DNA from: Macrostomum lignano
Taxonomy: Eukaryota
DNA: 64,000 nt
Direction: 5' to 3'
Assembly: GCA_002269645.1 (NCBI GenBank)
Contig: NIVC01000030.1
Span: forward strand, 1 to 64,000
Part shown: one piece after another, positions 1 through 23,567 of the stretch
How the letters are laid out: every line of letters starts with the position of its first letter
Position numbering within the stretch: position 1 is the stretch's first letter
The notes under the pieces: generated by a model
Databases searched by the model: none
What the model was told of the DNA's origin: nothing
The model's input: only the letters and a program-made list of their open reading frames with translations
Program-made: the position numbers and the translations under genes

Positions 1-1970
1 GGAGACACCTGTTAGACACAGTGAGTCACCTGTTAGACACAGAGGAGACACCTGTTAGGAGGAGACACCTGTTAGACACAGAGGAGTTACCTGTTAGACA
101 CAGAGGGTCACCTGTTAGACACAGAGGAGTCACCTGTTAGACACAGAGGAGACACCTGTTAGACACAGAGGAGACACCTGTTAGACACAGTGAGTCACCT
201 GTTAGACACAGAGGAGACACCTGTTAGACATAGAGGAGACACCTGTTAGACACAGAGGAGTCACCTGTTAGACACAGAGGAGTCACCTGTTAGACACAGA
301 GGAGTCACCTGTTAGACACAGAGGAGACACCTGTTAGACACAGTGAGTCACCTTTAGACACAGAGGAGTTACCTGTTAGACACAGAGGGTCACCTGTTAG
401 ACACAGAGGAGACACCTGTTAGACACAGTGAGTCACCTGTTAGACACAGAGGAGTTACCTGTTAGACACAGAGGAGTCACCTGTTAGACACAGAGGAGAC
501 ACCTGTTAGACACAGAGGAGACACCTGTTAGACACAGAGGAGTTACCTGTTAGACACAGAGGAGTCACCTGTTAGACACAGAGGAGTCACCTGTTAGACA
601 CAGAGGAGAACCTGTTAGACACAGAGGAGACACCTGTTAGACACAGTGAGTCACCTGTTAGACACAGAGGAGTTACCTGTTAGACACAGAGGAGTCACCT
701 GTTAGACACAGAGGAGACACCTGTTAGACACAGAGGAGTCACCTGTTAGACACAGAGGAGACACCTGTTAGACACAGTGAGTCACCTGTTAGACACAGAG
801 GAGTTACCTGTTAGACACAGAGGAGTCACCTGTTAGACACAGAGGAGACACCTGTTAGACACAGAGGAGACACCTGTTAGACACAGAGGAGTTACCTGTT
901 AGACACAGAGGAGTCACCTGTTAGACACAGAGGAGTCACCTGTTAGACACAGAGGAGACACCTGTTAGACACAGAGGAGACACCTGTTAGACACAGTGAG
1001 TCACCTGTTAGACACAGAGGAGACACCTGTTAGACATAGAGGAGACACCTGTTAGACACAGAGGAGTCACCTGTTAGACACAGAGGAGTCACCTGTTAGA
1101 CACAGAGGAGTCACCTGTTAGACACAGAGGAGACACCTGTTAGACACAGAGGAGTCACCTGTTCAGAGGAGTCACCTGTTAGACACAGAGGAGACACCTG
1201 TTAGACACAGAGGAGACACCTGTTAGACACAGAGGAGTCACCTGTTAGACACAGAGGAGACACCTGTTAGACACAGAGGAGACACCTGTTAGACACAGTG
1301 AGTCACCTGTTAGACACAGAGGAAACACCTGTTAGATATAGAGGAGACACCTGTTAGACACAGAGGAGTCACCTGTTAGACACAGAGGAGTTACCTGTTA
1401 GACACAGAGGAGTCACCTGTTAGACACAGAGGAGTCACCTGTTAGACACAGAGAGTCACCTGTTAGACACAGAGGAGTCACCTGTTAGACACAGAGGAGA
1501 CACCTGTTAGACACAGAGGAGACACCTGTTAGACACAGTGAGTCACCTGTTAGACACAGAGGAGACACCTGTTAGACATAGAGGAGACACCTGTTAGACA
1601 CAGAGGAGACACCTGTTAGACACAGAGGAGTTACCTGTTAGACACAGAGGAGTCACCTGTTAGACACAGAGGAGTCACCTGTTAGACCAGAGGAGACACC
1701 TGTTAGACACAGAGGAGTCACCTGTTAGACACAGAGGAGTCACCTGTTAGACACAGAGGAGACACCTGTTAGACACAGAGGAGACACCTGTTAGACACAG
1801 TGAGTCACCTGTTAGACACAGAGGAGACACCTGTTAGACATAGAGGAGACACCTGTTAGACACAGAGGAGTCACCTGTTAGACACAGAGGAGTCACCTGT
1901 TAGACACAGAGGAGACACCTGTTAGACACAGAGGAGACACCTGTTAGACACAGAGGAGACACCTGTTAGA
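1..1970. repeat. 22-bp tandem minisatellite (consensus GAGGAG[T/A]CACCTGTTAGACACA), runs off the left edge
   Basis: Continuous near-identical 22-nt units; lies upstream of the first visible exon of the Ly6-like gene, probably in its intron. Confidence 0.97.
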
Positions 1971-2036
1971 CGGAAGAGTTAGGGACAGTTTCCATAGAGA
2001 CAGATTGATCACGCAGCCATCATTTAATTTTCACAG

Positions 2037-4830
2037 CGAACGCTGCTGCGTCGATCACCTGCTACTCGAGTCCTCATCGACTAGCTATACCAGCAACGGA
2101 ACTACGACCCTCTGTGCCTTTGACAGCAGCTGCTACACATATGACTACGGAGAAGTGCGTCACACGCTCGTTTTAGCCTGACTCTTTCCTGACACCCACT
2201 GATTCCTTCCCGACACCACTGATTCCTTCCTGAAACCAGTGACTCCTTCCGACCCCACTGACTCCTTCTTGACACCCACTGATTCCTTCCCGACACCCAC
2301 TGACTCCTTCCTGAAACCAGTGACTCCTTCCGACACCCACTGACTTCTTCTTGACACCCACTGATTCCTCCGACACCCACTGACTCCTTCCGACACCCAC
2401 TGACTCTTTCCGACACCCACTGACTCTTTCCCAACACCACTGACTCTTTCCAACACCCACTGACTCTTTCCCGACACCCACTGACTCCCTCCAGACACCA
2501 CTGACTCTTTCCCAACACCACTGACTCTTTACCGAACCCACTGATTCTTTCCCGACCCACTGACTCCTTCCAGACACCACTGACTCTTTCCCAACACCCA
2601 CTGACTCTTTCCCGACACCCACTGACTCCCTCCAGACACCACTGACTCTTTCCCAACACCACTGACTCTTTCCCGACACCCACTGACTCCCTCCAGACAC
2701 CACTGACTCTTTCCGACACCCACTGACTCCCTCCAGACACCACTGACTCTTTCCCGACACCCACTGACTCCCTCCAGACACCACTGACTCTTTCCCAACA
2801 CCCACTGACTCCCTCCAGACACCACTGACTCTTTCCCGACACCCACTGACTCCCTCCAGACACCACTGACTCTTTCCCGACACCCACTGACTCCCTCCAG
2901 ACACCACTGACTCTTTCCCAACACCACTGACTCCCTCCAGACACCACTGACTCTTTCCCGACACCCACTGACTCCCTCCAGACACCACTGACTCTTTCCC
3001 GACACCACTGACCCTCCAGACACCACTGACTCTTTCCAACACCCACTGACTCCCTCCAGACACCACTGACTCTTTCCCGACACCCACTGACTCCCTCCAG
3101 ACACCACTGACTCTTTCCCGACACCCACTGACTCCCTCCAGACACCACGGACTCTTTCCCAACACCACTGACTCTTTCCCGACACCCACTGATTCTTTCC
3201 GGCACCCACTGACTCCTTCCAGACACCACTGACTCTTTCCCGACACCCACTGACTCCCTCCAGACACCACTGACTCTTTCCCGACACCCACTGACTCCCT
3301 CCAGACACCACTGACTCTTTCCCAACACCACGGACTCTTTCCCAACACCACTGACTCTTTCCCGACACCCACTGATTCTTTCCCGGCACCCACTGACTCC
3401 TTCCAGACACCACTGACTCTTTCCCGACACCCACTGATTCTTTATCGGCACTCACTGACTCCTTCCAGACACCACTGACTCCTTCCCAAACACCTACTGA
3501 CTCTTTCCCGACACCCACTGACTCCTTCCCAAACACCTACTAACTCCTTCCCGGACACCACTGACTCCTTATCGACACCACTGACTCACATCCGACGTTT
3601 CTAATTACTCCTTGATCTAACCCAAGCAATTTTAAATAAGTATAAAATGACTGTGCACTCATTTTGTTAAGTCTACCGCAGCAAAACCGAATTTTGCCCC
3701 TATACAGGACAACTTTGCTGGTTGTGGCACCTGCTCCGGGTATTCTTACACCACCTGCAAAGCGTGCACTGCCAGCTACTGCAATACTCGACCGCCTGTT
3801 CTGAACTGTTACTACAGCAATGGAGACTATCTTCACAGCAGCCGAAGGAGGAGGAGATGTGAAAGTAGCTATTGCTATGAGTACAGCTTTACCTATGCTA
3901 CTATCGATGTGAGTTTCAGACTCAAGTCGGAGTGCTGAAGTAATGTCTAATTTTATAATTTTATAGAATTAAAGTATAAAAATCTCTTTAACGGTTAGAC
4001 AGCATCTTTGACCTGTTAGACAGTGACGTCAACCTGTTAGACAGTGACATCAACCTGTTAGACAGTGACATCAACCTGTTAGACAGTGACGTCAACCTGT
4101 TAGATAGTGACATCAACCTGTTAGATAGTGACGTCAACCTGTTAGACAGTGACGTCAACCTGTTAGATAGTGACATCAACCTGTTAGATAGTGACGTCAA
4201 CCTGTTAGACAGTGACGTCAACCTGTTAGATAGTGACATCAACCTGTTATACAGTGACGTCAACCTGTTAGACAGTGACGTCAACCTGTTAGATAGTGAC
4301 ATCAACCTGTTAGATAGTGACGTCAACCTGTTAGATAGTGACATCAACCTGTTAGATAGTGACGTCAACCTGTTAGACAGTGATGTCAAACTGTTAGACA
4401 GTGACGTCAACCTGTTAGACAGTGATGTCAACCCGTTAGACAGTGACGTCAACCTGTTAGACAGTGACGTCAACCTGTTAGATAGTGACATCAACCTGTT
4501 AGATAGTGACGTCAACCTGTTAGACAGTGACGCCAACCTGTTAGACAGTGACGTCAACCTGTTAAACAGTGACGTCAACCTGTTAGATAGTGACATCAAC
4601 CTGTTAGACAGTGATGTCAACCTGTTAGACAGTCTTCAACAACACTAGTATTGTCCCCATCATCATAGATCTTCTTCGCCGGCTGTGGAGAGTGCTCAAA
4701 GCTCGACTCCTATAGCAACTGTAGAGCCTGCAACAGCGGGGACTACTGCAACTCTGCCGCCAGTCTTCGAGGCTGGAATTTTACCGCCTTCGCCACCGCC
4801 GTCATTCTGGCTATGATTCGGTTGCTGTGA
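2037..4830 (+). CDS. GPI-anchored two-domain Ly6/uPAR (three-finger)-like protein; exons 2037-2154, 3708-3908, 4669-4830; signal-peptide exon is upstream of the window
   Basis: AG/GT-bounded, phase-compatible exons give two Cys modules (ITCYS..LCAFDSSCY..AGCGTC..TCKACTASYCN; LNCYYS..RCESSYCY..AGCGEC..NCRACNSGDYCN). These are followed by SA and a hydrophobic tail (FTAFATAVILAMIRLL*), with AATAAA at 4998-5003. The 2037-2154 exon lacks one base near 2071. Not in the ORF track. Confidence 0.75.
2180..3590. repeat. Intronic tandem minisatellite built from ~20-23-bp CACC(C)ACTGACTC[TTT/CCT]CC units
   Basis: Visible tandem units; accounts for the repetitive ORFs 2102-3536. Confidence 0.95.
3990..4632. 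repeat. Intronic 21-bp tandem minisatellite (GTGACGTCAACCTGTTAGACA)
   Basis: About 30 units; accounts for ORF 3988-4620 (LSNRLTS repeats). Confidence 0.96.
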
Positions 4831-5124
4831 CTCTGTTAACAAATGTCTGTCACGTGTTAACTTCAAACAGATTTATTTATTCCTGATTACCTCGTCTGAC
4901 GCTTCTATTAGCCATCACAGCTCGCATTAACTGTCTCATCTGACAGAGTGGATGACCGCGAACCTATCCAGATACAGGGTGAAACAACTTGATGAAGAAT
5001 AAAAACTTACTGATTGAAAAAATGTTTGTTTTATTATATATTCACTTAGCAGAGAATGCTAATATTCAATAACTAGTTGCCCTTTCTTTCATGAACAAAT
5101 TTATTGTTTATTTTAGTGGAGCAG

Positions 5125-5579
5125 AAGGTTTGCTGGACCAGCCTCCTAGATCTTCAATTGCTGGACCAGCCTCCCATAACCCCAGTTGCTGAGCCAGCCT
5201 CCCAGATCCTCATTTGCTGGGCCAGCCTCCCAGATCCTCAGTTTCTTGGCCAGCCTCCCTGATCCTCAGTTGCTGGGTCACCAGCCTCCCAGATCCTCAG
5301 TTGCTGGGCCAGCCTCCCAGATCCTCAGTTGCTTGGCCAGCCTCCCAGATCCTCAGTTGCTGGGCCAGCCTCGCAGATCCTCAGTTGCTGGGCCAGCCTC
5401 CCAGATCCTCAGTTGCTGGGCCAGCCTTTCAGATCCTCAGTTGCTTGGCCAGCCTCCCAGATCCTCAGTTGCTGGGCCAGCCTCGCAGATCCTCAGTTGC
5501 TGGGCCAGCCTCCCAGATCCTCAGTTGCTGGGCCAGCCTTTCAGATCCTCAGTTGCTTGGCCAGCCTCCCAGATCCTCA
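5125..5579. repeat. 28-bp minisatellite (CCTCCCAGATCCTCAGTTGCTGGGCCAG), left part, interrupted by the LTR element
   Basis: Tandem units stop at ...AGATCCTCA|TGATG and resume at 16280. Confidence 0.95.
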
Positions 5580-6650
5580 TGATGTGTTCCTTATTACCAG
5601 TCCTCAACTGTAATCAAGGAACAATCACTTCTAGCTCTGTAGCTAGGCAACCCAGTAATCAAATGAAGGTATTCAATTACCTTTGAGTCCTTAAATGAGA
5701 GCTCTCGTAATAATCCTCGTCCGTAGTATCGCGATCAGTAACTTTCCTGTCCTTCAGGAAGTTTAGGCGCCTGGTAACAGTTGATCTGGTCCGTTATCTC
5801 CTTTGTCCTCTTGACTTCTTGCCGGCCGGTATCTGTAGTTCGGACCAATAAGAAGCTTCCAAATTAACAATGGGACCCTGCGCCAAACTGCGGTTTAATA
5901 TAAGCCTACTCCTTCTAGTAGTGCCTCTATGCACTCTAGGTATGGCTCCGGAAACCACTGATAGTCTTCTAAGATCTATCAGGGGCAGTCCTTCTGGAGA
6001 CTGCAACCAGTGGAGTCTAAACAGACTCAAGAGTCTCAGCAGACTCAAATAAACTCAAGTCTCAATAGACTTGAGCGAGACGTCTCAACCAACGGGCGCA
6101 AATGAGTAAGGCTTACCGCAAGAACTCGTCCACGACGCGAGTTTCTTCAGGAAGGCTTCACTAGAGCTTCCTCTTCGGAGCTTCTCTCCTTGGAGATTTT
6201 GGCTCCGGGTCCGTTCCGGACCACTTGTATTTATAGGCGTTCAGACCTCTCTCGAGGTCGTACATCACTGTCTTCGCAAATGTCAAAGGGTCACGATTCG
6301 GTGGCTGTCAAGCATGACAGGGTAGAAAGTTGCGCAACTAGTCTACTGTAAAAGCGCATGATTGGTTACCGTAGCTGGTAGACTTTGATTGGTTCATCCG
6401 GGTGCAACCCGAGTGCAAACAAAATGATGACTTGAAGGTGGGGTTTGAATTGACAGTTGTTGGTCGCACGTGATTGGGTGATTTCTAAAATTAGCATGCT
6501 CGAGGTCTCTCTCTTCCTATTGGTTAGTCCGAATATACTTATAGTTCAAAGCATACCTTTATTCATGCTCTTCAATTTACTACTAAATAAAATGTGTGAG
6601 TAGTACATTAACACTTTTATGTCTTCTTACGGGAGGTAGAACACTCTACA
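5580..6650 (-). repeat. 3' LTR (1071 bp), sense TGTAGAG...ACATCA
   Basis: By eye matches 15206-16279 except for 3 single-base indels; TATAAATA at 6228-6235 (-); preceded on the sense strand by the purine-rich ATGGGAGATTT (weak PPT candidate). Confidence 0.97.
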
Positions 6651-6868: not shown

Positions 6869-7081
6869 CTAACAATAGGCGCACTGCCGCAAACTACTTC
6901 TACCTATCGGGCAATTCTGCCAGAGCTGAATATAATGTGAGTCGCTTAAATATTGTCCGCATATGCGATGTCTGTTTTCACAAATAATTGGTGGCTTGAC
7001 AGCCAAGTCATCAGTTAAACATATTGGGCATTCGTAGAGTTGCTGTAGTTGGGGCGCCTGTTTGGACAGTGCGTTGCCCAT
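6869..7081 (-). CDS. Small accessory protein: N-myristoylation motif (MGNALSK) plus degenerate C3HC4 RING finger
   Basis: CPIC-x11-CENRH-x2-CGQY...CPIG spacing resembles SINA/SIAH-type RINGs; ligands 6 and 8 are TAT and GGT, each one change from TGT; a further CAYC at the C-terminus. Confidence 0.6.
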   Translation of the reverse strand: MGNALSKQAPQLQQLYECPICLTDDLAVKPPIICENRHRICGQYLSDSHYIQLWQNCPIGRSSLRQCAYC

Positions 7082-7192: not shown

Positions 7193-10100
7193 TTAACGAG
7201 GTCGCAGATTGTAGCCATGTTGCTGGTTCTCGGTTGATGTTTGTGTCTCCTCGTGTTTTGTTGCGATGTGGCGGTTCGCCGAACGCGTGCGATCAGCGTT
7301 GTCTAGTGACGGTAAAAACGTTGTCGTGTCAGTGTTGATCTTCTTTAGTCGATGAATGTGCACGTAGAATTGGTGCTGATGAGGATCTTGCACATTGGCC
7401 AGGCGTGCCGTTGTCGGTGACGTTAGTTGGACCACTCGATATGGTCCTTTGTACTTCTGTGCGTGTTTGTGCGTCTGTTGCGGCGGATAGTGCAGGTAGA
7501 CGATGTCGCCGGCTGTCAGAGTTGTCGATCTCGTGTCGGTGCCGGTGGTTAGAGCCACCTGATTGTCGATGTTGTGCTTGGCTACTTTCCATGCGAGGTG
7601 TAGTTGCGTGACGAACTTTTGAATGGACGTCGGGACTTCCACATATTGCGATGGTAGTAGTTGCTGTGCCAATAGGTTTGGCGGCTGGAAGTCTCGCCCA
7701 AACATTAGAAAGAATGGCGTATTGTCCGTTGATCGATGAATAGCGCTGTTGTAGGCCATTGTTACTGCTTGCAGATAGATGATCCAGTCGTCCGGTTGTT
7801 GATGCGCGAAGTGTGTAATCATCTCGTGTAGGTTGCGGTGAAACCTTTCAACCATGTTCGCCTTCGGATTGTAGGTCGATGTGTAGATCTGCGTGATGTT
7901 GAGGATCTTCACCACTTGCTGAAAGAGTTGAGACGTAAACTGCGATCCATTGTCCGATGTGAGGTTCTTTGGCGTACCGTACTTGCAGATGATGTCGTTG
8001 AAGAAACCCATTGCCACTGTCTGAGCTGTGATGTCCGGTATTGGTATGGCAATAGCAAACTTTGAGAAAATGTCCAAGGCTGTTAGGATGTAGGTGTAGG
8101 CTATGCCATGGAGACAGCTCGGTGGCAGCGGTCCGGTGATGTCGATGCTGAGACAGTCCATAGTTGTTGACTTTGGTATCGATTGTAGCTGTGGTTTTTG
8201 TCGTCGTCCTGTCTTCGATGCTGCGCATGAGTGGCAGTTGTTGCAATACTGCTTGATGTCGCCATGCATGCTTGGCCAAAAGTAGTATTGCTCCACTCTT
8301 GCAATGGTTTTGGCTGCCGACAGGTGTCCAGCGAGTGGGTTGTCGTGCAGCTCGTTGAGAATTGCCTGCCTAAACGAATATGGCATGTAGATTTTAGGTT
8401 TGTTGTCACTCATCCAGTAGAGTCGTGACTTGTTGATTGTTAAATGTTGTCGCTGCTTGCGCAGGAATTTTCGTTCCACGGGGCTGAGCTTGATGTCCTT
8501 GTCGTTGTTTTTAACTGCTATGTAGAAGTTGTCGTGTTCCGTCTCATCCACCAATTCCTTGATGTTAGGGATTGGATGAATGGCGTTGACTTCGTAGGCT
8601 CTTGACAGGGCGTCCGCGGCCTTGTTAGTAATTCCTGGTTTGTAGACGAGCTTGTAGTTGTAGTCCTGGATCTTGAGTGTCATCCTGATGAGTCGGTTGT
8701 TTGTTTGTCCTTTTGTAGTTACGACGTAGGTCAGCGGTGCGTGATCTGTGCGTACTATCGTCTGTAATGGAGATCCATAGATGTAGTAGTGAAACTGTCG
8801 TAGGGCGAACAGAACTCCTAGTAGTTCTCGTTCCGTAGCTGACCATTTTGTCTCATTCGGTTTAAGTGCTCGACTGACGTAGGCTATAGGTCGTTCCTTT
8901 TTGTCTTCAGTTTCCTGTAGTAGGACTGCTCCGAGTCCCGTTCCTGAGGCGTCTGTCTCGATGATGAAGGGTTTGTCGAAGTCCGGATGCTGTAGCAGTG
9001 CGTCTGATGTCAGCTGTCGTTTGATTTCGTCAAAACTTTCTTGTTGCTTTTGTGTCCAATTCTCCTGCTTCCATTTGTCGAACTTGAGCAGGTCGTACAG
9101 CGGCTTTGCTGTCTTCGCGAAGTTGGGTAAGAACTTTCGGAAGTATTGCGCAAGTCCAAGAAATGATTGGACCTTCGTTTTGCTAGTTGGCGTAGGAAAC
9201 TTTTTCACTTTATCCACGTTGTCTGGGTCCGGTGAAATTCCTTTGGCTGTCACCTGATGTCCCAGGTAACGCACGTTGTCTCGGAAGAATTTGCATTTAG
9301 TTGGTTGTAGCTTCAGACCTTGACGTTGTATAAGCGCGAGGGCCTTCTCCGTCGCTTCATAGAGTCGTTCGAAGTCTTCTCCGTAGGCCAAGATGTCGTC
9401 AACATAGTGCAACAGGTTCGTGCATCCTGCAAGCATGTATGCTGTTAGTCGGCTCATCGTTGCTGGGCTGTTGCTGAGTCCCATCGGCGATCGATTGTAC
9501 TCGTATACTTGTCCATTGTAGGTTTTGAAAGCCGTGTACTGTCGTGACTCTTTCTCGATTTCAATTTGCCAAAATCCATGACGTAGATCGAACACTGTGA
9601 ACAATTTTGCCGTGTTGAGCTTTGCTAGTAGTTCGGAGATCTTCGGTAGGCTTTGCTGATCCGTCGGTATGTACTTGTTCAGTAGTCTGAAGTCACATAC
9701 GAGTCGTCTTTCGTTAGTCTCCTTCTTTTGCACCAAGAGACATGGTGATGAGTATGCTGAAATGGCTTTGCTGATGATGCCGTGTTTCAGCATTTTGTCG
9801 ATAATCTCATCGAAGTGCTGTTGCAGATGCTTGGCGATCGGGTACGGTTTGCACTGAATTGGTTCCGTGTGCGGCAGAAGTTTGATTTCCTGTTTGATGT
9901 CCTTGGCTCGTCCGATGTCGTAGTCATGGTGGCAGAAAGCGTCGTTGTACTTCCACAACAGCTGTCGAACTTTCCTCTTTTGCTGTTCCGTAATCGGGCT
10001 GTCATCCAAATTGATCTTCTTTTGAAATTCTTCCTCTGTTAGTCGTGGAGTCGCTTGCTCAATCAGCATAACCGATGCTTGGGTGTTGAGATGACCGATG

Positions 10101-10924
10101 CACATTCCTTGTCGTAGATGAACCGTTTCTGTGTTCGGGTTGAATATTTGTACTGGCAGCTGTTTATCTTTTGCAACCAGTACTAGTGCCGTAGGCATCA
10201 TAATTTGGTGTTTAGCCGTGACTCTTCTGTTTGGGTCGAATATCATTGCTTCCTCCGTTGCGTTAGTTGCCTTTGCCTTTATCCAGCAGGCGCTCTCCGG
10301 TTGGATGATGACATCTTGTTGCAATGTTACTTTTGGTAGTACTCGGATCTGGTTGATCAATGGTTGTTCTACCGAGTCGATCTTGAACGTTTGCTTATTG
10401 AAGTCGAAGGTCAATGGTAGTCGAAGCTGCTTGAACGTGTCGATGCCAACAATAACGTCCTGGTTTGGGAGTCTGTCGATGACGTACGTTGGAACTGTCA
10501 AATGTTTATTAGCGATTCTTAAATCAATGTCGGCTTTTCCCAGAATGTTTAGCGAATGTCCTCCTGCTCCTGCAACTGCGATTGTTGCTGGCCGTAGAGC
10601 AAGTCGTAGCTTGTTGCACAGTTGTTTTGATATAACTGTGATGGAGCTGCCGGAGTCGAGTAGCGCTCGACATGGTAGATTGTTGATTACCACTTGAGCC
10701 ATGGCTTTGCCAATTTCGGCGTGTAGAGTACATACGTAGTTCTCTGGCCATTTTGGGTCTTGCTGTTCTGCTTGATAGTTAGGTGGTTGTATTCTTGGTG
10801 CCGTTGGTGTTGTCGGAATCGATGGATATAGCCGCGTTGCTAGTGTCGGTTGCCCTTGAACCTCACGATGTGCAGTTTCTGTTAGTTCTAAACTGTTGTC
10901 GCCTTCCGTTGTCGTTCTTTGCAT
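7193..10924 (-). CDS. pol: Pol: late-domain linker, aspartic protease, dUTPase-like remnant, RT, RNase H, integrase with GPY/F (frame open from 11233; first ATG after env at 10924)
   Basis: ALLDSGSS; YVDD; FIIETDASG/ERELL/TDH/ADALSR; HHCC (HDNPLAGH..CHSC); D(SIDIT), D(SDNG), E(MVERF); GPYRVV; no stops over 3.7 kb. Confidence 0.97.
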   Translation of the reverse strand: MQRTTTEGDNSLELTETAHREVQGQPTLATRLYPSIPTTPTAPRIQPPNYQAEQQDPKWPENYVCTLHAEIGKAMAQVVINNLPCRALLDSGSSITVISKQLCNKLRLALRPATIAVAGAGGHSLNILGKADIDLRIANKHLTVPTYVIDRLPNQDVIVGIDTFKQLRLPLTFDFNKQTFKIDSVEQPLINQIRVLPKVTLQQDVIIQPESACWIKAKATNATEEAMIFDPNRRVTAKHQIMMPTALVLVAKDKQLPVQIFNPNTETVHLRQGMCIGHLNTQASVMLIEQATPRLTEEEFQKKINLDDSPITEQQKRKVRQLLWKYNDAFCHHDYDIGRAKDIKQEIKLLPHTEPIQCKPYPIAKHLQQHFDEIIDKMLKHGIISKAISAYSSPCLLVQKKETNERRLVCDFRLLNKYIPTDQQSLPKISELLAKLNTAKLFTVFDLRHGFWQIEIEKESRQYTAFKTYNGQVYEYNRSPMGLSNSPATMSRLTAYMLAGCTNLLHYVDDILAYGEDFERLYEATEKALALIQRQGLKLQPTKCKFFRDNVRYLGHQVTAKGISPDPDNVDKVKKFPTPTSKTKVQSFLGLAQYFRKFLPNFAKTAKPLYDLLKFDKWKQENWTQKQQESFDEIKRQLTSDALLQHPDFDKPFIIETDASGTGLGAVLLQETEDKKERPIAYVSRALKPNETKWSATERELLGVLFALRQFHYYIYGSPLQTIVRTDHAPLTYVVTTKGQTNNRLIRMTLKIQDYNYKLVYKPGITNKAADALSRAYEVNAIHPIPNIKELVDETEHDNFYIAVKNNDKDIKLSPVERKFLRKQRQHLTINKSRLYWMSDNKPKIYMPYSFRQAILNELHDNPLAGHLSAAKTIARVEQYYFWPSMHGDIKQYCNNCHSCAASKTGRRQKPQLQSIPKSTTMDCLSIDITGPLPPSCLHGIAYTYILTALDIFSKFAIAIPIPDITAQTVAMGFFNDIICKYGTPKNLTSDNGSQFTSQLFQQVVKILNITQIYTSTYNPKANMVERFHRNLHEMITHFAHQQPDDWIIYLQAVTMAYNSAIHRSTDNTPFFLMFGRDFQPPNLLAQQLLPSQYVEVPTSIQKFVTQLHLAWKVAKHNIDNQVALTTGTDTRSTTLTAGDIVYLHYPPQQTHKHAQKYKGPYRVVQLTSPTTARLANVQDPHQHQFYVHIHRLKKINTDTTTFLPSLDNADRTRSANRHIATKHEETQTSTENQQHGYNLRPR

Positions 10925-10932
10925 TATGGCAT

Positions 10933-12775
10933 TCACTGTCTTCTTAGCTTTGGACAAGTTTGACTGAAGCACCGTACGATCGACGAAATGATGAAGATTG
11001 CCGTGACAATCCACACAATGCAAGCACCGTAGAAGATGAATCCTTGATAGAGACTGCCTCTTCCATTGAGCAGCTCCCAGAAGCTGTTTGTCCAAAATGA
11101 TTTGATGGCGCTGTCCATTGAAACAAGGACGGGAAATCTTCCTGTCCCGGTTCCTTTGTCCTTTCTTGTGAACAGCTGGTGAATCATCTTGCGTTGGGTG
11201 ATGAACGCTTGCAAGAAGTCGTTGATCGTCCATCCTGGTGTTATCTCGTCAAGTTGGATATCGGCGAATGGCGTATACTTCGTTCTGTTGAATCGGATTT
11301 TCAAATCCTCCATGTCGTAGTTTTCGTCGACGATTACTTCCGGTTCTGTGATGTTTGCTGTCGTTCCAGTTGTTTTGATGACGTGTAGTGCATTGTCCAG
11401 TTGATAATAGTTTGCTGCCGTGGTGCAAGGTCTCGGTATTGCGGTGCCAACGATGATGTTGTGTACCGTGTCCAAGAATCCCTGAATTCGTTTTCCTTCG
11501 TAGAACGCTTCAATCCTTGGCTTGTCGTAGCAGGTTGTTGACGTGTTCGACGGCAAGATGTTAAAGTGCTGTATCGGCGTGCACTTGTATATCAACAGAT
11601 GCTCGTATATTGGAACTGCCAAAACGTTCGTCATTCCGGTGATTTTACGAAAAGTCATCGTAGGGTTGACATAGTAGTTTTGTCTGGCATAATTTAAGTT
11701 GATTGCGTGCATTTTGCAAGTTAGCTGGACCAGTGTTCGATGCAAGTGGTTTAACTGGTTGTGTAGATTGTGATCCAAAGCCGTTATCTTTGCTGACAGT
11801 AGTCGGTTTGACACCAGTTTGGGACGTTCGATGTCACGTCGTCGTCTGTTCTGTTGTTCCTGCTGTTGATACGTTCCGTTGATGATCGCCAGAAAGGTTT
11901 GTTTGTCGTCATCTTTTACGTAGACTGGTATCTCTTGTTCCGAGATGAATAGTGTCTTGTCTGTATCCTTGCATTTCAGTTTTTGCTCGACTGGTTTCTT
12001 TTGAAACGTCAGTGCCAAGTCTCCTGACTTTGCCAAAAACGTGTTTGACAGTAGACCTCCTTCAACTGTGTGATACTTTTGAAGCTTGCAGTCAATTTCC
12101 GGCTCAACTTCCCACGCGAAGAAGTATTGTCGTGACTTAGATGGTTCTTCATATCGTGAGTCGCCTCTGCGTATATTTGCCATCGATAGTCTTGATGATA
12201 TGTTGGACTCAACGGTAAGCTGTATAGTTCCTCATTCCGCAGTATCGGCGTTGGACACCATCCTTTGCTGTATCGGCAGTCACTTAATTGCAGTTGTAGC
12301 GACTCCATTTTTTCAAAAGGATTGTGGTAGAATGGAATATTCCTGATTAGGTAACTGTTTCGTGTCATGTAGTTAGTCCATGCTTCCGAAAAGTGTACAT
12401 ATCGTCCGTTTGCTGAGTTCTTCGTTCGGTAAAGTTGTGCCTCCCCCACTTTCTCATCCGGTTCTAGCTGACCATCCTTTGAGAACAGTGTTTGGTTCCA
12501 TTGTAGACATTCAGCGTGCGACACATGTAGTTCGTGTTGCCAAAATCGAATTCTGTTCCATTGTCCTCGCCAAACTTTTTCCACTAGGTGCTTGTCTCTA
12601 AAGCACACTATTCCGAGTTGTCGATGCTTCTTGATGTTAGCTTTGTAGAGATCAATTGTGATCTTCTTTGGCTTCGTCTGATTTGTCTTGAAGTAGCTGC
12701 ATTTGATGTCGGTTGGTATCTTGTAGATCATCGGTTGGATATGCGCATCCGTTGGACATATCATTGGTTTTCCAT
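10933..12775 (-). CDS. env: Envelope glycoprotein, class III (herpes gB/chuvirus G-like) fusogen candidate, ~614 aa, split by a -1 frame step near 12225
   Basis: ORFs 12009-12890 and 10933-12183 join into a Cys-rich ectodomain (PMICPT, DCRYSKGWC, YFFAW, central helix ending LTC, NPT, CTPI, CYDKP, GFLD, RPC). It has several N-x-S/T sequons, a furin-like RRRR site, an aromatic membrane-proximal segment and a C-terminal TM (FIFYGACIVWIVTAIFIISSIV). Confidence 0.8.
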
Positions 12776-14509
12776 TGCTGTTGCTTTGGTGACTACTGCC
12801 GTCAGTAGTATTATGATGATCCAGAATATCCAGAATCGCCATTTTCTGAACGTTGCCGTTGTCTTTGCTGGCATTGGCTGCGGCTGCCATTCGTTATCTT
12901 CTGCGTCCGCATCGTATTCTTCCTCTTGTTCCATTGGCGTTTCCGAGCGCAAGGCATCCGATTCGTTCCGCTGCTTGTCGTCTTCATCATTTTCGTCCTT
13001 GCTTTCTTCCGATGTTGTAGTTTTGTCACTCCATTGTCTGCGGTACCTCACTTCGGCCTTGTAGTCGACCGTTTGAATGTAGGCTTCACCATTTCGTTTA
13101 TATCGGATCTCGTAGCATTGATCGCTGTCGGAGCTTAGATTTCTTTCTTCCATTCCTTTGTGCCTTCCGTCTTCATGTTCTTTGTCGGCGGCTCGGTTGT
13201 CATCAGCGTCATTGTGCATCTCATAATCGTGATCGCTGCTTTCTTCTTGCTGTTCTTCTTCCATCTCTGTATTTCCGTCGTTGCTTCTTTCTTTGTCATC
13301 CTTCGTTGCCAGTTCTTTGTCGTTGCCTTTGTTTGTTTCTTCTTTTCTTTCACTGATGTCGCTTGGCAATGTTTTTTCTGTGCTCACTTCTGTCTTTTCT
13401 TCTTCGCTGTCAATGTTAGTTTCTTTCATTTCGACCATGCTGATGTTTTTTGTCTTTTCGCTGCTCTCCGCATCGAGCCAGTCGATTTCATTGATAGTGA
13501 AGTCCATTTCCAAGTCGTCTATCGTGAAGACTTGCTGCTCTTGCTGTTCGCTTTCCGGTGTGTACGTGATGGCGTTTGCATATCGTTGCATCGCTTGCGT
13601 TGGTTGCTTGGGCATGTATCTGGCGTTTCGCGGTCTGTAGCCATTGTTTCCGAAGCGTTTCGTGTTTTGCTGCTGCCAATTTTGATGTTGTTGCCATGGT
13701 TTTTGCGGCTTCCTTCTGTTGAATGGCTGTCGCTGCATGTCATTTCTTGTTGACCGATGAGGACAATGTATTTGGTAGTGTCCTTCTCGTCCACAGTAAT
13801 AGCATCTGGCTTGGGCTCGTTCATTTCGTCTTTTTTGTTCGGCGATAACGGCTGTTTGATGTTGCATCAATTTGTTTAGTTGCTGTGTCAGTTTCTGCAC
13901 TTCTGTGTTGCCGGTTGTCATTAGTGGAGCGCTTGCTTCCCACTGCATTCCGCACCGTAAAAGGTCTTCCTCGGTTTCAATGTTTTCGCGTAGAAGTCTA
14001 TCTCGGAGTGACGGCTGTGCATTGTTTATTACGTGCAGAATCAGATTTTGTTCGCGATCCATCAATCGCTGTCGCTCTCTAGCGGCTAATTCTGCCGCAC
14101 CCAGAGGTGGTTGGTCTGCAGCTGGCAGTGTTGGCTGATGCAGTGCCTTAATTATCTGACGGATGTCGTCCACAAAGGTCAGGAAGGATTCGGTTGGCTG
14201 CATCCTTCTGTTATGCAACTTGTGCAGTAGCACTGATCTGTTTGTGCCACAGCGGTTGAAATGCGCGCGCAGTTGAATGATTAATGCTGGGTAGTTTTGC
14301 TGTGTTGCCGCATCTAGTTTACCATAAATCTCTCGTGCAGTGCCTTGGAGGAGTGGTGGCAACAGTTGCGCTTTTTCTGGATTTTGTAGGTTGTATTCCC
14401 TACATACCAGGTCAAAATGATCAACAAAGGTGTTAAAGTCTTTTTCCATAGAAAAGGTGCCAACTGTCTCTTTGATATCTCTGTGCACCGTTGGATTGCG
14501 CCGCGCCAT
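12761..14509 (-). CDS. gag: Gag (capsid plus CCHC nucleocapsid), followed by an acidic spacer and an in-frame internal signal/TM helix
   Basis: Retrotransposon gag-like helices (FVDHFDLVC..LLQGTAREIY; MQPTESFLTFVDDIR); zinc knuckle CYYCGREGHYQIHC; C-terminal RKWRFWIFWIIIILLTAVVTKATA. Confidence 0.93.
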   Translation of the reverse strand: MARRNPTVHRDIKETVGTFSMEKDFNTFVDHFDLVCREYNLQNPEKAQLLPPLLQGTAREIYGKLDAATQQNYPALIIQLRAHFNRCGTNRSVLLHKLHNRRMQPTESFLTFVDDIRQIIKALHQPTLPAADQPPLGAAELAARERQRLMDREQNLILHVINNAQPSLRDRLLRENIETEEDLLRCGMQWEASAPLMTTGNTEVQKLTQQLNKLMQHQTAVIAEQKRRNERAQARCYYCGREGHYQIHCPHRSTRNDMQRQPFNRRKPQKPWQQHQNWQQQNTKRFGNNGYRPRNARYMPKQPTQAMQRYANAITYTPESEQQEQQVFTIDDLEMDFTINEIDWLDAESSEKTKNISMVEMKETNIDSEEEKTEVSTEKTLPSDISERKEETNKGNDKELATKDDKERSNDGNTEMEEEQQEESSDHDYEMHNDADDNRAADKEHEDGRHKGMEERNLSSDSDQCYEIRYKRNGEAYIQTVDYKAEVRYRRQWSDKTTTSEESKDENDEDDKQRNESDALRSETPMEQEEEYDADAEDNEWQPQPMPAKTTATFRKWRFWIFWIIIILLTAVVTKATAMENQ

Positions 14510-15185: not shown

Positions 15186-15203
15186 GAGAGGGCGAGATCA
15201 CCA
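15186..15203 (-). promoter_or_regulatory. Putative primer-binding site TGGTGATCTCGCCCTCTC
   Basis: Starts with TGG 2 nt after the terminal CA of the 5' LTR; priming tRNA not identified. Confidence 0.6.
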
Positions 15204-15205
15204 AT

Positions 15206-16279
15206 TGATGTGTTCCTTATTACCAGTCCTCAACTGTAATCAAGGAACAATCACTTCTAGCTCTGTAGCTAGGCAACCCAGTAATCAAATGAAGGTATTC
15301 AATTACCTTTGAGTCCTTAAATGAGAGCTCTCGTAATAATCCTCGTCCGTAGTATCGCGATCAGTAACTTTCCTGTCCTTCAGGAAGTTTAGGCGCCTGG
15401 TAACAGTTGATCTGGTCCGTTATCTCCTTTGTCCTCTTGACTTCTTGCCGGCCGGTATCTGTAGTTCGGACCAATAAGAAGCTTCCAAATTAACAATGGG
15501 TACCCTGCGCCAAACTGCGGTTTAATATAAGCCTACTCCTTCTAGTAGTGCCTCTATGCACTCTAGGTATGGCTCCGGAAACCACTGATAGTCTTCTAAG
15601 ATCTATCAGGGGCAGTCCTTCTGGAGACTGCAACCAGTGGAGTCTAAACAGACTCAAGAGTCTCAGCAGACTCAAATAAACTCAAGTCTCAATAGACTTG
15701 AGCGAGACGTCTCAACCAACGGGCGCAAATGAGTAAGGCTTACCGCAAGAACTCGTCCACGACGCGAGTTTCTTCAGGAAGGCTTCACTAGAGCTTCCTC
15801 TTCGGAGCTTCTCTCCCTTGGAGATTGTTGGCTCCGGGTCCGTTCCGGACCACTTGTATTTATAGGCGTTCAGACCTCTCTCGAGGTCGTACATCACTGT
15901 CTTCGCAAATGTCAAAGGGTCACGATTCGGTGGCTGTCAAGCATGACAGGGTAGAAAGTTGCGCAACTAGTCTACTGTAAAAGCGCATGATTGGTTACCG
16001 TAGCTGGTAGACTTTGATTGGTTCATCCGGGTGCAACCCGAGTGCAAACAAAATGATGACTTGAAGGTGGGGTTTGAATTGACAGTTGTTGGTCGCACGT
16101 GATTGGGTGATTTCTAAAATTAGCATGCTCGAGGTCTCTCTCTTCCTATTGGTTAGTCCGAATATACTTATAGTTCAAAGCATACCTTTATTCATGCTCT
16201 TCAATTTACTACTAAATAAAATGTGTGAGTAGTACATTAACACTTTTATGTCTTCTTACGGGAGGTAGAACACTCTACA
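15206..16279 (-). repeat. 5' LTR (1074 bp)
   Basis: Direct repeat of 5580-6650; TATAAATA at 15857-15864 (-); ATTAAA at 15521-15526 (-). Confidence 0.97.
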
Positions 16280-17789: not shown

Positions 17790-20700
17790 GCCTGCAAACG
17801 TCGGAGAGAACCGGGTTTGGCCCGACGTGAGTGAGCCTGGCCCTGGTTGAAAACCTAGCAGTAATAAAGTGCTCGATTTTCACTGCCTGAGCGGCAGAAG
17901 GGGCACCGCTCCTCGGGTACTTGGCCCTGAAGGAAGCGGTGGCGAGAGAAGCAGCCATGCCCGGAGAGGGCCATGCTACCTGCTCTGAGGTCTCTGCGGT
18001 TGAGCCTGAGGAGGGCTCTACGCAGGAGAGGAGAGGGGCAGGGGACGGCCGCACGGGATTGCCTACAATTCCGGGTGTCGTGCCACCTGCGGAGATGCTC
18101 GGAGTCAGTCCAGCGCTTAACGCGGGAGTTGATCACCGAGGCGGGGATGGGGGCTCCCGGGCCCGGCCCCAGCAGCGCGCCGGCGGAGCCAGCCTTGGCC
18201 AGCAGGTCAGCGCGCTTGTTGCCGAGGAAGCCGGCGTGGCCCGGGATCCATCTGAGCTCCACCTGGTTGCCTAGCGCAAGCCCGCGTTGAGCTGGGTGTT
18301 GAAGTCCAGGACGGACCTGGAGCTGGTGGTGCAGCGGTAGAGGGCTCGAAGGGCTGCTTGGCTGTCAGAGTGAAAAATAAATTTCCGACCGCTGAGCTGC
18401 CTTCGGCGCAGCTCTGCCGCGCAGGAGCTGATGGCAAAGCACCTCGCTCTGAAAAACACTGGAGTTAAGCCCAGTGTGCAAGGAGAAGCTCCACACCACG
18501 TCTCCCTTGAAGAAGACGCAAGCTCCGAAGCCTGAAAGACCATGCCTCATAGAGCCGTCAGTGTAACAGTGGACTTCAGAATCGCTCGCGCTGTCGCTCG
18601 CTTCGTGTCGAGGCTGAATAGTGACATTATACCTTTGGCTCAGGAGAAGGGCGGCTGGGATCGAGTCCATGAGGATGTTGAGCCCGCCACACTCCTCGAG
18701 AGCCTTGAGCCAGAGGTCAGAGTGCGGGATAAGCGACCGCTTCTTAAAGGCCCGCACTTTCTTGAAGGCCACCCCAGCATCTAGAAGACGCCGGGTGCTC
18801 TTCGCCGCCTCTCCTTTGATAAAAATATCCAGAGGAGGGGCACAGAGGAAGGCATTCATGCCTTCAAAAGGAGTAGAGGGTGGAGCGCTCATAGACATGC
18901 GGCAAGCTCTGCCCTGGGTTTTGTAAAGAGCGTCGAGGTTGCTCTTGACGCTCAGGCCGCTGGCCCACACGAGGCTGGCGTAACTGATCGAGGGGCGGTT
19001 GATGGCAGTGTAAATCCACCACAGCTTCCTGGGGGTGAGCCCCCAGGTGGTGCCCACGGCGCGCCTGATCTGAGCCAGGACAGCCAGGGATTTTTTAGTT
19101 TTAAGTTCAGTCCAGTTAAGCCTGAGTCCAGTTAAGCCTGAGTGAGGCCCAGGCAGCGGACCTGCTTCTCCATTGAAATATCCTTCTCATAGAGGGTGAG
19201 GGGCCTAATTGTCCAGAGCAATTTGTTGGTAAACATGACAGCTCTGGTTTTCGACTCTGAGAGTCTAAGGCCAAATTGGTTTGCCCAACGCTCCGCTCGT
19301 CCCAGAAAGCCCTGCAGAGGATCTCTAATGGTATCAACCGAGGGGCCCGCGCATATCGCGGTCACATCATCGTCATAGCCCACCTTGAGAATGGGGTCGT
19401 GGAGATCACTGCAAAGCAGCTCATCCAGGACCATGTTCCAGAGAACGGGGGTGAGAACTCCGCCCTGGGGGCCCCCTTTCTGGACAGGCGCCGAAAGAGA
19501 GCTGGCGTTAAGGTGGGCCACTACAGTGCGATTTCGGATCATGAACATGATCCACCGGACAAGGTGAGGGTGCGGAGCCCTGGATTCCAGGGCTCTGCAA
19601 AAAGCCTCGAAGATGACGTTGTCGAAGGCCCCCTCAATGTCCAGGAATAGCGAGAGGGCAAAACCGCTGCCAAGAACGGCCCTCTCCAGGAAGTCAACAA
19701 TGACATGGAGGGCACTCTCGGTAGACCTGCCCGCGCGGAAGGCGTGCTGGTTCTGCAAGAGTGGGAAGCGCTCCAGCTCGACTGAAAGTAGGCGCCAAAG
19801 CACCAGTCTCTCGAGGAGCTTAAGGCAGAAAGAGGTGAGGCTGATAGGCCTGAAGGCCTTCACCGATTGGTAGTCGCTCTTTCCAGGCTTGGGGATAAAG
19901 ACCACCCGGGCCTTCCTCCACGCAACTGGTACATAGCCCAGCTCCACACAAGCTCGAAGGAGACGACAGAGCAGGTCCAGGAAGAGGTGGTTTTTCACCG
20001 CCTCGTGCAAGAACGCTGGGTAGATGCCGTCGGGCCCAGGCGCCTTGAACGGGTTAAAGGACCTTGCCGCTCTAATAATGCGGTCTTTGTTGATCATAGA
20101 CTTGGTTAGGCCTTGCCCTCCCACGGTGTGGTCAGGCGGGCCCTGCTGAGTCGGAGATTTAGGGAAGAAACTGTTGAGCATTAACTCTAGAGTCTCTTTA
20201 GAGCTCTCTGTGACCGAGCCATCAAGTCTCTTCACAACAGAGAGTTTAGAAAAACGGTCATTCGTGAGTGCCTTAACCACGCGGGCTACGGGGCGAGAGC
20301 CCAATTGGTGCCGATTGGCCGTCTTGGCCCTTCTGACTTGGCCCTTAAACTTGTGGATCGCACGGGTATAGGCCTCTATATCAGATGGGTCTTTGGTTTT
20401 GAGCGCTCGCCTTTGGAGGGTCCTGGCTCGGCGCCGAAGGGCCCCGAGCTCTGGGTTCCACCAGGGAGCAGATTTCTTGCCTTTATAGGCCTTTAGAGGT
20501 GTAGAGAAAATACTAACGATTGAAATATGAGATATTTAAATTAGAGTTAAATTGAATCTAAGATAAGCCAGTACGAGCTAAGTGGGCGCAGGGCCCAAAC
20601 AAGTATATTTAAATGACCAATTTAGAGGGGGGTTGACTCCAGATAATAAGGAGAGGGGTGAAGTGCGCGACTGAAGAGAGAGGCGAGAATGGAGAGCCAA

Positions 20701-21400
20701 TCAGAAGGCAGCAAGGGAGAGAGAGATAAGAATAACAAGATTGAGCTCGACAGAGAGAGAGAGAGAGAGAAAACAGAGTAAACAGAGACAAGTGAAGGTG
20801 AACTAAGAAATGACTAGGAAAATCGCGACAAGAGGGCAGGCTGCTTCAAAGGCAGTGGTGATCGCCCCGCCCAGGGAGGAGGCGAGATCTCCACCACCTG
20901 GCAGTCAGAGAGGTCACTGTGGGGGGGGGGGGTCAAGATCCCGAAGGCCGCGGCTCAGCTTCGAGCCAAAGGCGGCCCAATCGGTATTCCTGACGTTCCG
21001 ACTCCAAGTGACCTTAGGCTTTTCCTTGGTCGGCCCAATGCAAAAGCGGATAAAGCGGTGGTCCGTGAGCGAGTCCTCATCCCACACTCGCCAGCCCGTG
21101 ACTGCGGAAAGCAGTCCGGGTGAAGCGATGGTGGTGTCGATGACTTCGGCCCACCGCCCATTATTGAACGTTGGTGCATTGCCCACGTTACAGAAAAATT
21201 GAGGTTTGTGCTGCTGACACAGGCCAGCGGCTCCTCGCCTCTGTTATTGGTGTTCCTGCTGCCCCAATGCAGGTGCTGTGCGTTCACATCCCATGCAATG
21301 AGCAGCTCAAACCGACGGGACGCGGCGTAGTCAATGAGGTTGACTAGCGCGTCGCAGACTACTGGGGCATCGCCTGGGAAATAGGCAGATGCTACCAGCA
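17790..21400 (-). pseudogene. LINE ORF2 (EN-RT-RH), frameshifted
   Basis: Fragments 20955-21401, 20914-21186, 19132-20304, 18365-19057, 17855-18262; RT motif reads YDDD; 16-bp duplication near 19111-19142. Confidence 0.88.
20500..20830. mobile_element. Solo LTR (331 bp) inserted in LINE ORF2
   Basis: TGTAGAG...CGACA termini with perfect 5-bp TSD AGAGG (20495-20499, 20831-20835); removing it restores the frame EAACPLKAYKGKKSAPWWNPEL. Confidence 0.9.
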
Positions 21401-21449
21401 CAGGTTTATTGGGAATGGGCGAGGGGTTGGGCCCAGCTGGGACGTCCCC

Positions 21450-23567
21450 ACCCTCCCTGGACGAGCTGGTGCGCCTAGGCGTCCCGGCGACCTCTCGCCT
21501 CCGCTTGGTGATTTTGGTGGTGCGGACCGCCTCAGCTGCGCGCTGGTACAGCCGCGCCGCTTGGTGCTGCGCGCTGGGCGTCGGTCGCCTCCGCCCTCAG
21601 CAGCGCGCTCAGCTTTTCCCGCGCGACCGTGCTGCCGGGCGGGGCGGTTTGCTTTGGCAGCCTGGGCAGAAGCTCGCGCCTCGGCCCCGGCTGCCTCAGC
21701 ATTCCGCCCGCCCTGCTCACTGCCACGGGGAGGGTCGGCCTCGTAGGAGCGGATGCGCAGCTTCCAGAGGCCGACGTTGATGAAGTTGCCGTGTGGATAG
21801 CGCCTCATCCAGGCGTCCGACAGCCCCAGGATGGCTGTGAAGCCAGTGCCGTCGGTGCGCTTAAGGGTGTCATGCACCACTAGGCCCGCGGCGGGAAGCT
21901 CCCGGTTGACTGCTAGCAGTCCTTTCCGGAGCTCGTCAGCAGAGGTAACGACGCTCCTGGCCGGAACCCAGATTCGATGCCTCTTGGTCCGGGGCGCTCG
22001 TCCTCTCTGCAGAAGGCTAAGTTGAGGTCCCAGCTCTGCTCGGGCAGCAGCTCAAGGAGCCGCCGACCCGAGTCAGCATCACTGGGCCAAATGAGAAGGC
22101 ACGAGTCCCTCGACGCATTCGAATGAATGTTCAGAGGCGTGCCCTTCAGAGTTTGCTTCCACAGGAGGCCATCAATGGCAACTCTCACCTGCTTCAGCTG
22201 GTCGGGAGACAGGCGCGCATGAAGAGTTTGGTCGGGTGGTGATCAGACACCCGAAAACTCCCACTTCCAGACACTTTAAGCCTGGGAACAAAATAGGGTG
22301 TAGTGCACTTACTGGTGCGGGCTCCTCTTCGTTGTAGGGCAGGTTCTCCGAGCTCGTTTCTTCAAATCTTTTTCTCCGGAGGAATCTTTTTGAGGTCTAG
22401 AATCGGCCGAAGGTGAGAGCGTAACAGTGAAATTGACGTCGCAATATTTCATCGAGTGCGGGAATCAATATATTTTTCGAGTGTCAAATCAATATCAATA
22501 GTGCGCCCTAAAAAAACAACTTCTAACACGAGGTCCTCCAAAAGGGGCGTCTTCTTCTAGAAGTAACAGAATCGGACTAGTGTGCTCCTACCGGTTAATC
22601 TAGGATAATCCTAATAAACAATCAATAATCCTCTAAGGGTATCGGAATCGGTCCGCAGATCCTATCCAGTCCCTTAGGAAAATGGGAGGCCTCAAATTCA
22701 AAGGACTCAGTAAAATCAACTGATCAACAATAACGGCCGGCAATAAAATCGCTCTCAGTAATCCAAATACCAAAGGCTCCAACAAAGGCTCACCAATTGG
22801 TTTACTTCTCCCTCAGAGATGTAGCCTCGAGTTGCTTCTGCAGTAAGCTCAAGATGTCTTGAGGCTTGCTCCGAGTCTGAGATTTCAGCTCGGATTGTGC
22901 TTTGTATTTATAGTCAAACTTAGTATATTATTAGTAACTTTGCTCAGATTTCATCATATTTCATCATGGTTGTAATCGTGATTCATATTTCATCATACGT
23001 TGTAATTTGATTCATACCTCATCATAAGTTGTATTCATGGTCTTAAAAATAGAGTATGACAATTTGCAATTTTAAAGCATTCAAGTTTTTCGAATTTTCA
23101 TGTTACTACTTACAGTAGCTCGTAGTTTACTCTGTATCGTATTTGGAGATTTCTACACGCGTCCTTCCCCAGAATGACAACTGCCGGTTGCCTCTTTGCC
23201 GCATCAGCGTGGGAGGCCCGGGGGTCGGTGGAGCCTTCTTCAGGTGGGCTGTCTAGGGCCATCGCCCCAGATTGGGAAGCTTCCGCTGCCGCGGGCCGTT
23301 GGCCCCTGGCGCCGGTTAGGCTTCCGCCCTCCTTGGCCCGCCTCGCCTTATTCAGCCGACGGTGGGCAGCTCCAGAGGTGGTGCTCAGCTGCTTGGCAGC
23401 TGGAGTAGCAGGTGTCTTCTCGGAGACACCGCTCAGAGTTGGCTCCACGGGTCTCGCCGAGGCGTCCCCGATGGTAGCAGGTGGTATGGCCGCGGAGTCC
23501 ACGGCCCCAGCAGAGGCCGGAGGCACTGTGTCATCCACAGCCGGTTGATTTCTTCGGCTAGAAGCCA
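21450..23567 (-). pseudogene. LINE ORF1, split by the 22240-23157 insertion
   Basis: MASSRRNQ...AVVILGKDA continues as PDQTLHARLSPDQLKQVRVAIDGLLW on the other side of the insert, directly upstream of the EN domain. Confidence 0.7.
22240..23157 (-). mobile_element. Solo-LTR-like insertion (~918 bp) in LINE ORF1
   Basis: Sense termini TGTAG...ATCA and TATAAATACAA (TATAAATA at 22905-22912) echo the big gypsy LTR; no clean TSD. Confidence 0.65.

Follow-up and report, generated by a model that had tools for sequence, protein, structure and literature searches.

The 64,000-nucleotide (nt) stretch of the Macrostomum lignano genome analysed here (assembly GCA_002269645.1, contig NIVC01000030.1, positions 1 to 64,000; hereafter the window) carries a complete Ty3/gypsy retroelement on its minus strand, at 16279-5580. 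The element is bounded by two long terminal repeats (LTRs) of the TG...CA type, a 1,074-nt 5′ LTR (15206..16279, with TATAAA at 15864) and a 1,071-nt 3′ LTR (5580..6650); in a pairwise comparison, these differed by zero substitutions and three 1-nt gaps. A 4-nt target-site duplication flanks the ends, and a primer-binding site (PBS; 15192..15203) lies 2 nt past the 5′ LTR. With a pol order of protease (PR), reverse transcriptase (RT), RNase H (RH) and integrase (IN), these features place it in Ty3/gypsy (Metaviridae). The A17 peptidase, DUF5641 and post-integrase env of Bel/Pao elements (Belpaoviridae) are absent, as are the separate env open reading frame (ORF) 3′ of pol and the class I fusogen of Retroviridae. 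The element is a very recent insertion and a young copy of an active, errantivirus-like family with GAG-ENV-POL order and an envelope gene of the herpesvirus glycoprotein B (gB) type. An RT tree of nine env-bearing relatives, built without named references, put another M. lignano family (P0004, 39% identity) nearest to it outside its own family. The insertion site lies inside a 28-nt minisatellite, an array of which recurs at about 57100-57700. Scanning the LTR with two canonical heat-shock-element patterns gave no match, and no tRNA genes were found within the window. An earlier note on this DNA, drawn up from the sequence alone, had been silent on the LTR limits, the target-site duplication, the PBS and a short RING-type ORF at 7081-6869.

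Between the LTRs, the minus strand reads gag, acidic spacer, a first transmembrane segment (TM1), env, a second transmembrane segment (TM2) and PR-RT-RH-IN. After a 697-nt leader containing no ATG, gag (13522..14509) encodes a capsid-like region, a CCHC knuckle (~13810-13760) and a Q/N/R-rich tail. The knuckle was read directly from the sequence, its Pfam zf-CCHC match being weak (E 0.063), and Gag has no Pfam capsid match despite the CCHC motif; the relatives P0033, P0043 and P0051 match Ty3_capsid or Retrotrans_gag. The spacer (12875..13521) is 33% aspartate plus glutamate and is the most rapidly changing part of the element, with a ratio of non-synonymous to synonymous substitution rates (dN/dS) of 0.2-0.56. 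TM1 (12776..12874) consists of a basic n-region, a hydrophobic helix and the residues A-T-A, and is a predicted internal signal sequence with a putative signal-peptidase site. The Env ectodomain (11044..12775) follows, then TM2 (10978..11043), a predicted stop-transfer anchor with basic residues behind it, and a linker plus pol (7193..10977). In pol, we located the protease DSG (10663), the RT YVDD (9406), RNase H (8956), and the HHCC motif (8347-8236) and core (8146-7852) of integrase; Pfam matched PR, RT, RNase H and integrase in that order in a single frame, the fourth. TM1 and TM2 are the only helices in the element with a Kyte-Doolittle hydropathy above 2 (2.19 at 12829 and 2.43 at 11043; maximum in the pol frame, 1.51). 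In an unbroken sister copy, the net charge is +4 before and -1 after TM1, and 0 before and +4 after TM2. Motif, hydropathy and Pfam evidence thus confirmed the order of domains that the earlier note had read from the letters, and the basic residues that it had placed on the cytosolic side of both helices are there. TM1 of a diverged subfamily has accumulated 13 non-synonymous differences over its 33 codons while keeping the basic stretch, the hydrophobic core and A-T-A, a pattern that suggests change of the kind seen in signal peptides.

In the window copy, this coding region is spread over four overlapping stop-free frames (14632-12761, 12893-12009, 12231-10933 and 11248-7193), each -1 relative to the one before, so that three successive -1 steps return Pol to the frame of Gag, as the earlier note had reasoned. 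The env frame is broken near 12770 and 12175, and TM2 near 10950. We queried the genome with a 2.7-kb segment running from TM1 to the start of the protease; long matches were colinear in all of the best 40 of 94 candidates that were scored, the window included. Gene order was also kept in all 20 other copies that we fetched, one of which ends at a contig edge before gag. Two of the 20 were unbroken, with a stop-free frame of 2,480 codons and a protein of 2,439 aa from the same ATG, exactly the joined length that the note had calculated. Searched at the protein level with the C-terminal half of Env, the genome yielded 136 matches, 16 of them inside open frames of at least 2,400 codons; by identity, nine of these stood at 92% or above, two at 63-64%, four at 28% and one at 23%. 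The ORF of unbroken copies, about 2,440-2,540 codons long, thus encodes Gag-spacer-TM1-Env-TM2-PR-RT-RH-IN, and the single polyprotein posited by the note exists in natural copies. A database protein labelled Macrostomum lignano (P0001, 96% identical) likewise has env-TM2-PR-RT-IN in one chain.

The three frame steps of the window are not features of the family. Those near 12770, 12175 and 10950 are missing from 18, 20 and 17 of the 20 sister copies, respectively; the note had the outer two right but put the middle one near 12225. In short-read contigs from four runs (four studies), the 12770 and 10950 steps are missing in every run, and the 12175 step in both runs with coverage there. Because the steps are missing from most sister copies and from the short-read contigs, assembly error is probably their likeliest cause. 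Set against this, the steps at 12770 and 10950 recur in two and three of the 20 copies, and short-read contigs collapse copies and lose rare variants, so the window copy may carry real damage; moreover, 18 of the 20 fetched copies are broken somewhere, at scattered and mostly private sites, which counts against the single-polyprotein reading. Programmed ribosomal frameshifting that sets a Gag:Env:Pol ratio would account for every step being -1 and for a few copies sharing two of them, but it is largely refuted and now very improbable, given the absence of the steps from 17-20 of 20 copies and from the contigs, the position of one step within the ectodomain and the lack of a slippery heptamer at the TM2-side step. 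We also considered a subfamily-specific frameshift near 10903, where four of 20 copies have a step, and rejected it: there is no slippery heptamer at the site, P0001 reads through it with the same flanking residues, and the short-read contigs do not list the step.

Nor can env be put down to misassembly or to a single, isolated insertion of a viral glycoprotein gene. The three breaks in the window copy and the satellites around it could raise that suspicion, but the 40 colinear matches, the recurrence of this gene order across divergent families and in other phyla, and the bridging of both junctions by short-read contigs of four studies refute it. Sibling copies that lack env, or carry it 3′ of pol, would have undone the note's proposal; none was seen among the 40 scored or the 20 fetched.

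In unbroken copies, the Env ectodomain has 578 aa, 12 cysteines and five N-glycosylation sequons, with a furin-type RRRR near 11840. Searching with it yielded 53 relatives. A profile of 33 sequences, including 31 of the shorter relatives and excluding long polyproteins, matched herpesvirus gB at E 8e-15. A monomer model (predicted local distance difference test (pLDDT) 71.8, predicted template-modelling score (pTM) 0.41) recovered a gB-like five-domain fold with a long central helix. In Foldseek, the model aligned with gB structures over ~640 columns (best E 4e-21, template-modelling score 0.49, root-mean-square deviation (rmsd) 18-36 Å) and also matched nyamivirus, chuvirus and rhabdo-like G proteins, the best being nyamivirus G (E 8e-25). 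Profile and structure searches thus put a class III fold in the middle segment, where the note had allowed that a fusogen fold might be missing. As a single sequence, Env had no match in the PDB, and word-indexed protein searches returned only M. lignano-like proteins. Two points weigh against the assignment: the Pfam Monjiviricetes_fusion match in the third frame (E 1e-5) lies under the curated cut-off, and the low pTM and the high rmsd to gB mean that domain placement in the model is loose. On the profile and modelling evidence, Env is a class III fusogen, similar to herpes gB and nyamivirus G, with a predicted role in membrane fusion.

Substitution patterns indicate that Env is under purifying selection: in five of five pairs, all against one copy and so not independent, the N-terminal half of env had a dN/dS of 0.10-0.11 at a dS of about 0.5, and RT-RH stood at 0.02 where measurable. 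Identity between subfamilies is patchy along the element, with the N-terminal half of env at 86% where the remainder is at 99%, and the reverse, which indicates recombination. Copies that are mosaic relative to the window (L013-L020) have segments of the env N-terminal half, gag, protease, RT and IN swapped between subfamilies.

How would one chain contain a cytosolic Gag, a glycoprotein and a cytosolic Pol? Cytosolic translation would begin from the gag ATG; TM1, acting as an internal signal anchor, would send the ectodomain into the lumen of the endoplasmic reticulum (ER), where signal peptidase would cut after A-T-A; and TM2 would halt transfer, so that Pol would be synthesized on the cytosolic side. 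Furin would cleave the ectodomain at RRRR, and the element's protease would cut Gag off the spacer and separate Pol from the tail of Env. Barring an undetected RNA-processing step, Gag, Env and Pol would be made 1:1:1. The relatives argue for this arrangement. A CCHC knuckle lies upstream in the same chain in 21 of the 53, and a hydrophobic helix (Kyte-Doolittle at least 1.6) stands between knuckle and env in 20 of these 21, in most cases with small residues and a P-x-x-C motif behind it; net charge before that helix is positive in 18 of the 20. Eleven of the 53 join a knuckle, env and either a PR or an RT motif in one chain; two of these are labelled nematode proteins, which share the env-PR-RT-IN chain. 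Such conservation in distant relatives supports the two-pass topology well, and an in-out-in polyprotein is the simplest and, we think, the probable reading. The cleavage sites, the product ratios and the site of budding are things that we infer.

Structural polyproteins of flaviviruses and alphaviruses, and the leader peptide of foamy-virus Env, are analogues of this arrangement. The likeness is one of working only (capsid, internal signal, luminal glycoprotein, stop-transfer helix, cytosolic enzymes); there is no homology, the window Env being class III rather than class II and the element reverse-transcribing.

Several observations pull against the two-pass polyprotein. Its topology is read from hydropathy and charge only, and TM2 falls below the hydropathy cut-off in several relatives. 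Many of the 53 relatives are fragments, three of the 21 with a knuckle come from the window family or its host, and some are gene models, possibly stitched together across introns (P0002 being a chimera). Pol domains precede env in two of 22 scanned relatives (P0044, a Bel/Pao element, and P0024). Equimolar Gag and Pol would also be unusual among enveloped retroelements. Finally, all 21 copies read keep a methionine at 12874, 14 residues ahead of the helix. It could begin a spliced or trans-spliced message that supplies most of Env (or Env-Pol), in which case TM1 would function as a conventional signal peptide at the N terminus, and the main use of the long frame would be to fuse Gag to Pol. 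An AG directly upstream of the methionine would suit such a message; errantiviruses make env from a spliced RNA, and flatworms use spliced-leader trans-splicing. However, by eye there is no pyrimidine tract before that AG, P0003 (54% identical) has no methionine in the 15 residues before the helix, and Gag-Pol from the long frame would still have to cross TM1 and TM2. We therefore regard a separate env message as unlikely. The short-read contigs of the four runs showed no joints, although contigs of this kind do not reveal splicing.

If the two-pass polyprotein is right, what is its Env for? It might make no particles that pass between animals, and instead serve cell-to-cell spread within one worm, from soma to germline or neoblasts, or act mainly as an anchor for assembly at the ER, either of which is compatible with the polyprotein; we give this possibility an even chance. 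In Drosophila errantiviruses, Env serves soma-to-germline transfer, which favours spread within the animal. Purifying selection and segment exchange in the N-terminal half of env show that the ectodomain matters in its own right; this speaks against Env as nothing but an anchor and leaves spread within the animal unaffected. After the signal-peptidase cut, Gag and Pol would be separate, Gag held by TM1 and Pol by TM2, so that Env would link Pol to the particle. In keeping with this and with the two-pass polyprotein, the env C-terminal half lies directly upstream at 75 of 75 protease loci (78 matches, from the best 150 of 969 candidates scored, compared by eye); the association is no more than suggestive, as families this young may still await the loss of env. 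Taken to its conclusion, the gene order would be a working design and more than a rearrangement: TM1 would keep Gag on the membrane in place of a matrix domain, packaging of Pol would depend on the presence of Env, replication itself would require Env, budding would occur at the ER, as in flaviviruses, and the RING proteins encoded after pol (one to three, described below) would be counter-defence ligases. We put this conjunction forward tentatively, as less likely than not. Bringing Gag and Pol together through two membrane anchors, in place of a Gag-Pol fusion, would mean that a reverse-transcribing element can assemble by another route, with implications for the way in which retroelements first acquired envelopes. 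The family offers a testbed for such a mechanism, with dozens of young copies, several divergent single-frame families and a host amenable to RNA interference and transgenesis.

The layout itself is of a kind already described. Elements with a gB-type env in GAG-ENV-POL order, not monophyletic, are reported from Nematoda, Bryozoa and Platyhelminthes in the main text of Chary & Hayashi (eLife 2026, PMC13524379), which adds that a transmembrane domain may lie on either side of a gB ectodomain and credits the flipped env/pol order in nematode endogenous retroviruses to Sacco et al. 2022 (J Gen Virol 103:1739). As far as that text goes, these errantiviruses share with the window element its gene order, gB-type env, two flanking hydrophobic segments and host phylum. 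The novelty implied by the earlier note therefore falls away, and the layout is not a discovery. A table in the same paper lists Platyhelminthes_Rhabditophora_Mlig_errantivirus_2 from M. lignano, with 16 copies and an LTR of about 864 nt. Its tabulated 12-nt PBS is identical to that of the window element, the host species is the same and the LTR-to-LTR spans are 10.6 kb and 10.7 kb, but the LTRs of the window element are longer (1,071-1,074 nt); on these tabulated values, the window copy probably belongs to a sister subfamily, and its family has probably been catalogued already. In a word search of the main text of PMC13524379, 'polyprotein', 'fused', 'frameshift', 'RING', 'zinc finger' and 'additional ORF' were absent. 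Word searches of the accessible text found nothing on the window element in PMC4604429 and no 'envelope' in PMC12801592, which classifies M. lignano LTR families. Beyond PMC13524379, the literature searched, in which subscription journals are sparsely covered, held neither the topology model nor the continuous ORF nor the RING ORFs.

Bel/Pao elements with gB- or chuvirus-like env (for example, P0044) also have a class III env in one ORF with pol, as in the window element, but there env follows the integrase and is accompanied by an A17 peptidase and DUF5641. The nematode retroviruses of Sacco and colleagues reportedly have a continuous gag-env-pro-pol ORF with a nyamivirus-like glycoprotein, which fits the best viral fold match of the window Env; they are said to be restricted to nematodes and to carry other accessory ORFs. 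In the literature searched, neither the topology model, with what it would mean for the tethering of Gag and the packaging of Pol, nor the RING ORFs after pol (one to three) were found in print. What the window family still has to offer is the model of topology and packaging and the accessory RING genes.

Tandem RING-finger ORFs, one to three in number and 20-42% identical as paralogues, lie between pol and the 3′ LTR. The window copy has a shortened version (6869..7081, minus strand; 70 aa) that has lost some metal ligands; in other subfamilies, the ORF is 124 or 222 aa long (further loci: L021 149-2008; L022 807-169). In most copies, as in the family at 63% identity, a RING gene is found about 4.6 kb past env. 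Full-length paralogues have the C3HC4 ligand pattern of RING domains, which they have in common with E3 ligases of the SIAH and TRIM types and with viral RING proteins (ICP0, PE38). They match SIAH1 (E 4e-5) and TRIM5 (E 1e-4), and Sina_RING matched five of six members. In a model with a pLDDT of 81.7, a second Cys/His finger comes after the RING, and a helical domain after that; in these additions the accessory ORFs differ from SIAH/TRIM-type RINGs. The C-terminal domain gave no clear fold match (best Z 6.5). A word-indexed protein search with the RING ORF found no homologue, and the ESM Atlas gave only RING-type leads, all under 0.9. The products are probably E3-ligase-like, and would be accessory proteins made from separate or re-initiated messages. 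They would join the few accessory genes known in Ty3/gypsy elements. A myristoylated, matrix-like role for the ORF was set aside: the MG start of the window lineage is absent from four paralogues.

Five loci (G000 C301, C352, C525, C1192 and C2869) are likely to represent an amplified, internally deleted, non-autonomous derivative, with gag (79% identity) in a 1,031-codon frame, a RING ORF about 3.1 kb downstream and no match to the env C-terminal half or protease listed. The genome contains at least three further gB-env families (63-64%, 27-28% and 23% identity) with open frames of 2,450-2,870 codons, and P0004 has the same knuckle-TM-env-TM-pol chain. P0024 is arranged differently: its aspartyl-protease matches precede a gB-like env that has two helices ahead of it, and it has no RT. 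Clustered or tandem copies and fragments occur on single contigs (G000 C87, C669, C1130, C2121 and C2447), possibly as nested insertions or piRNA-cluster-like regions. Elsewhere in the window, 18365-22051 (minus strand) holds a fragmented non-LTR retrotransposon with AP endonuclease and RT matches, and 1-5700 and 39500-64000 contain many unrelated mini- and microsatellite arrays.

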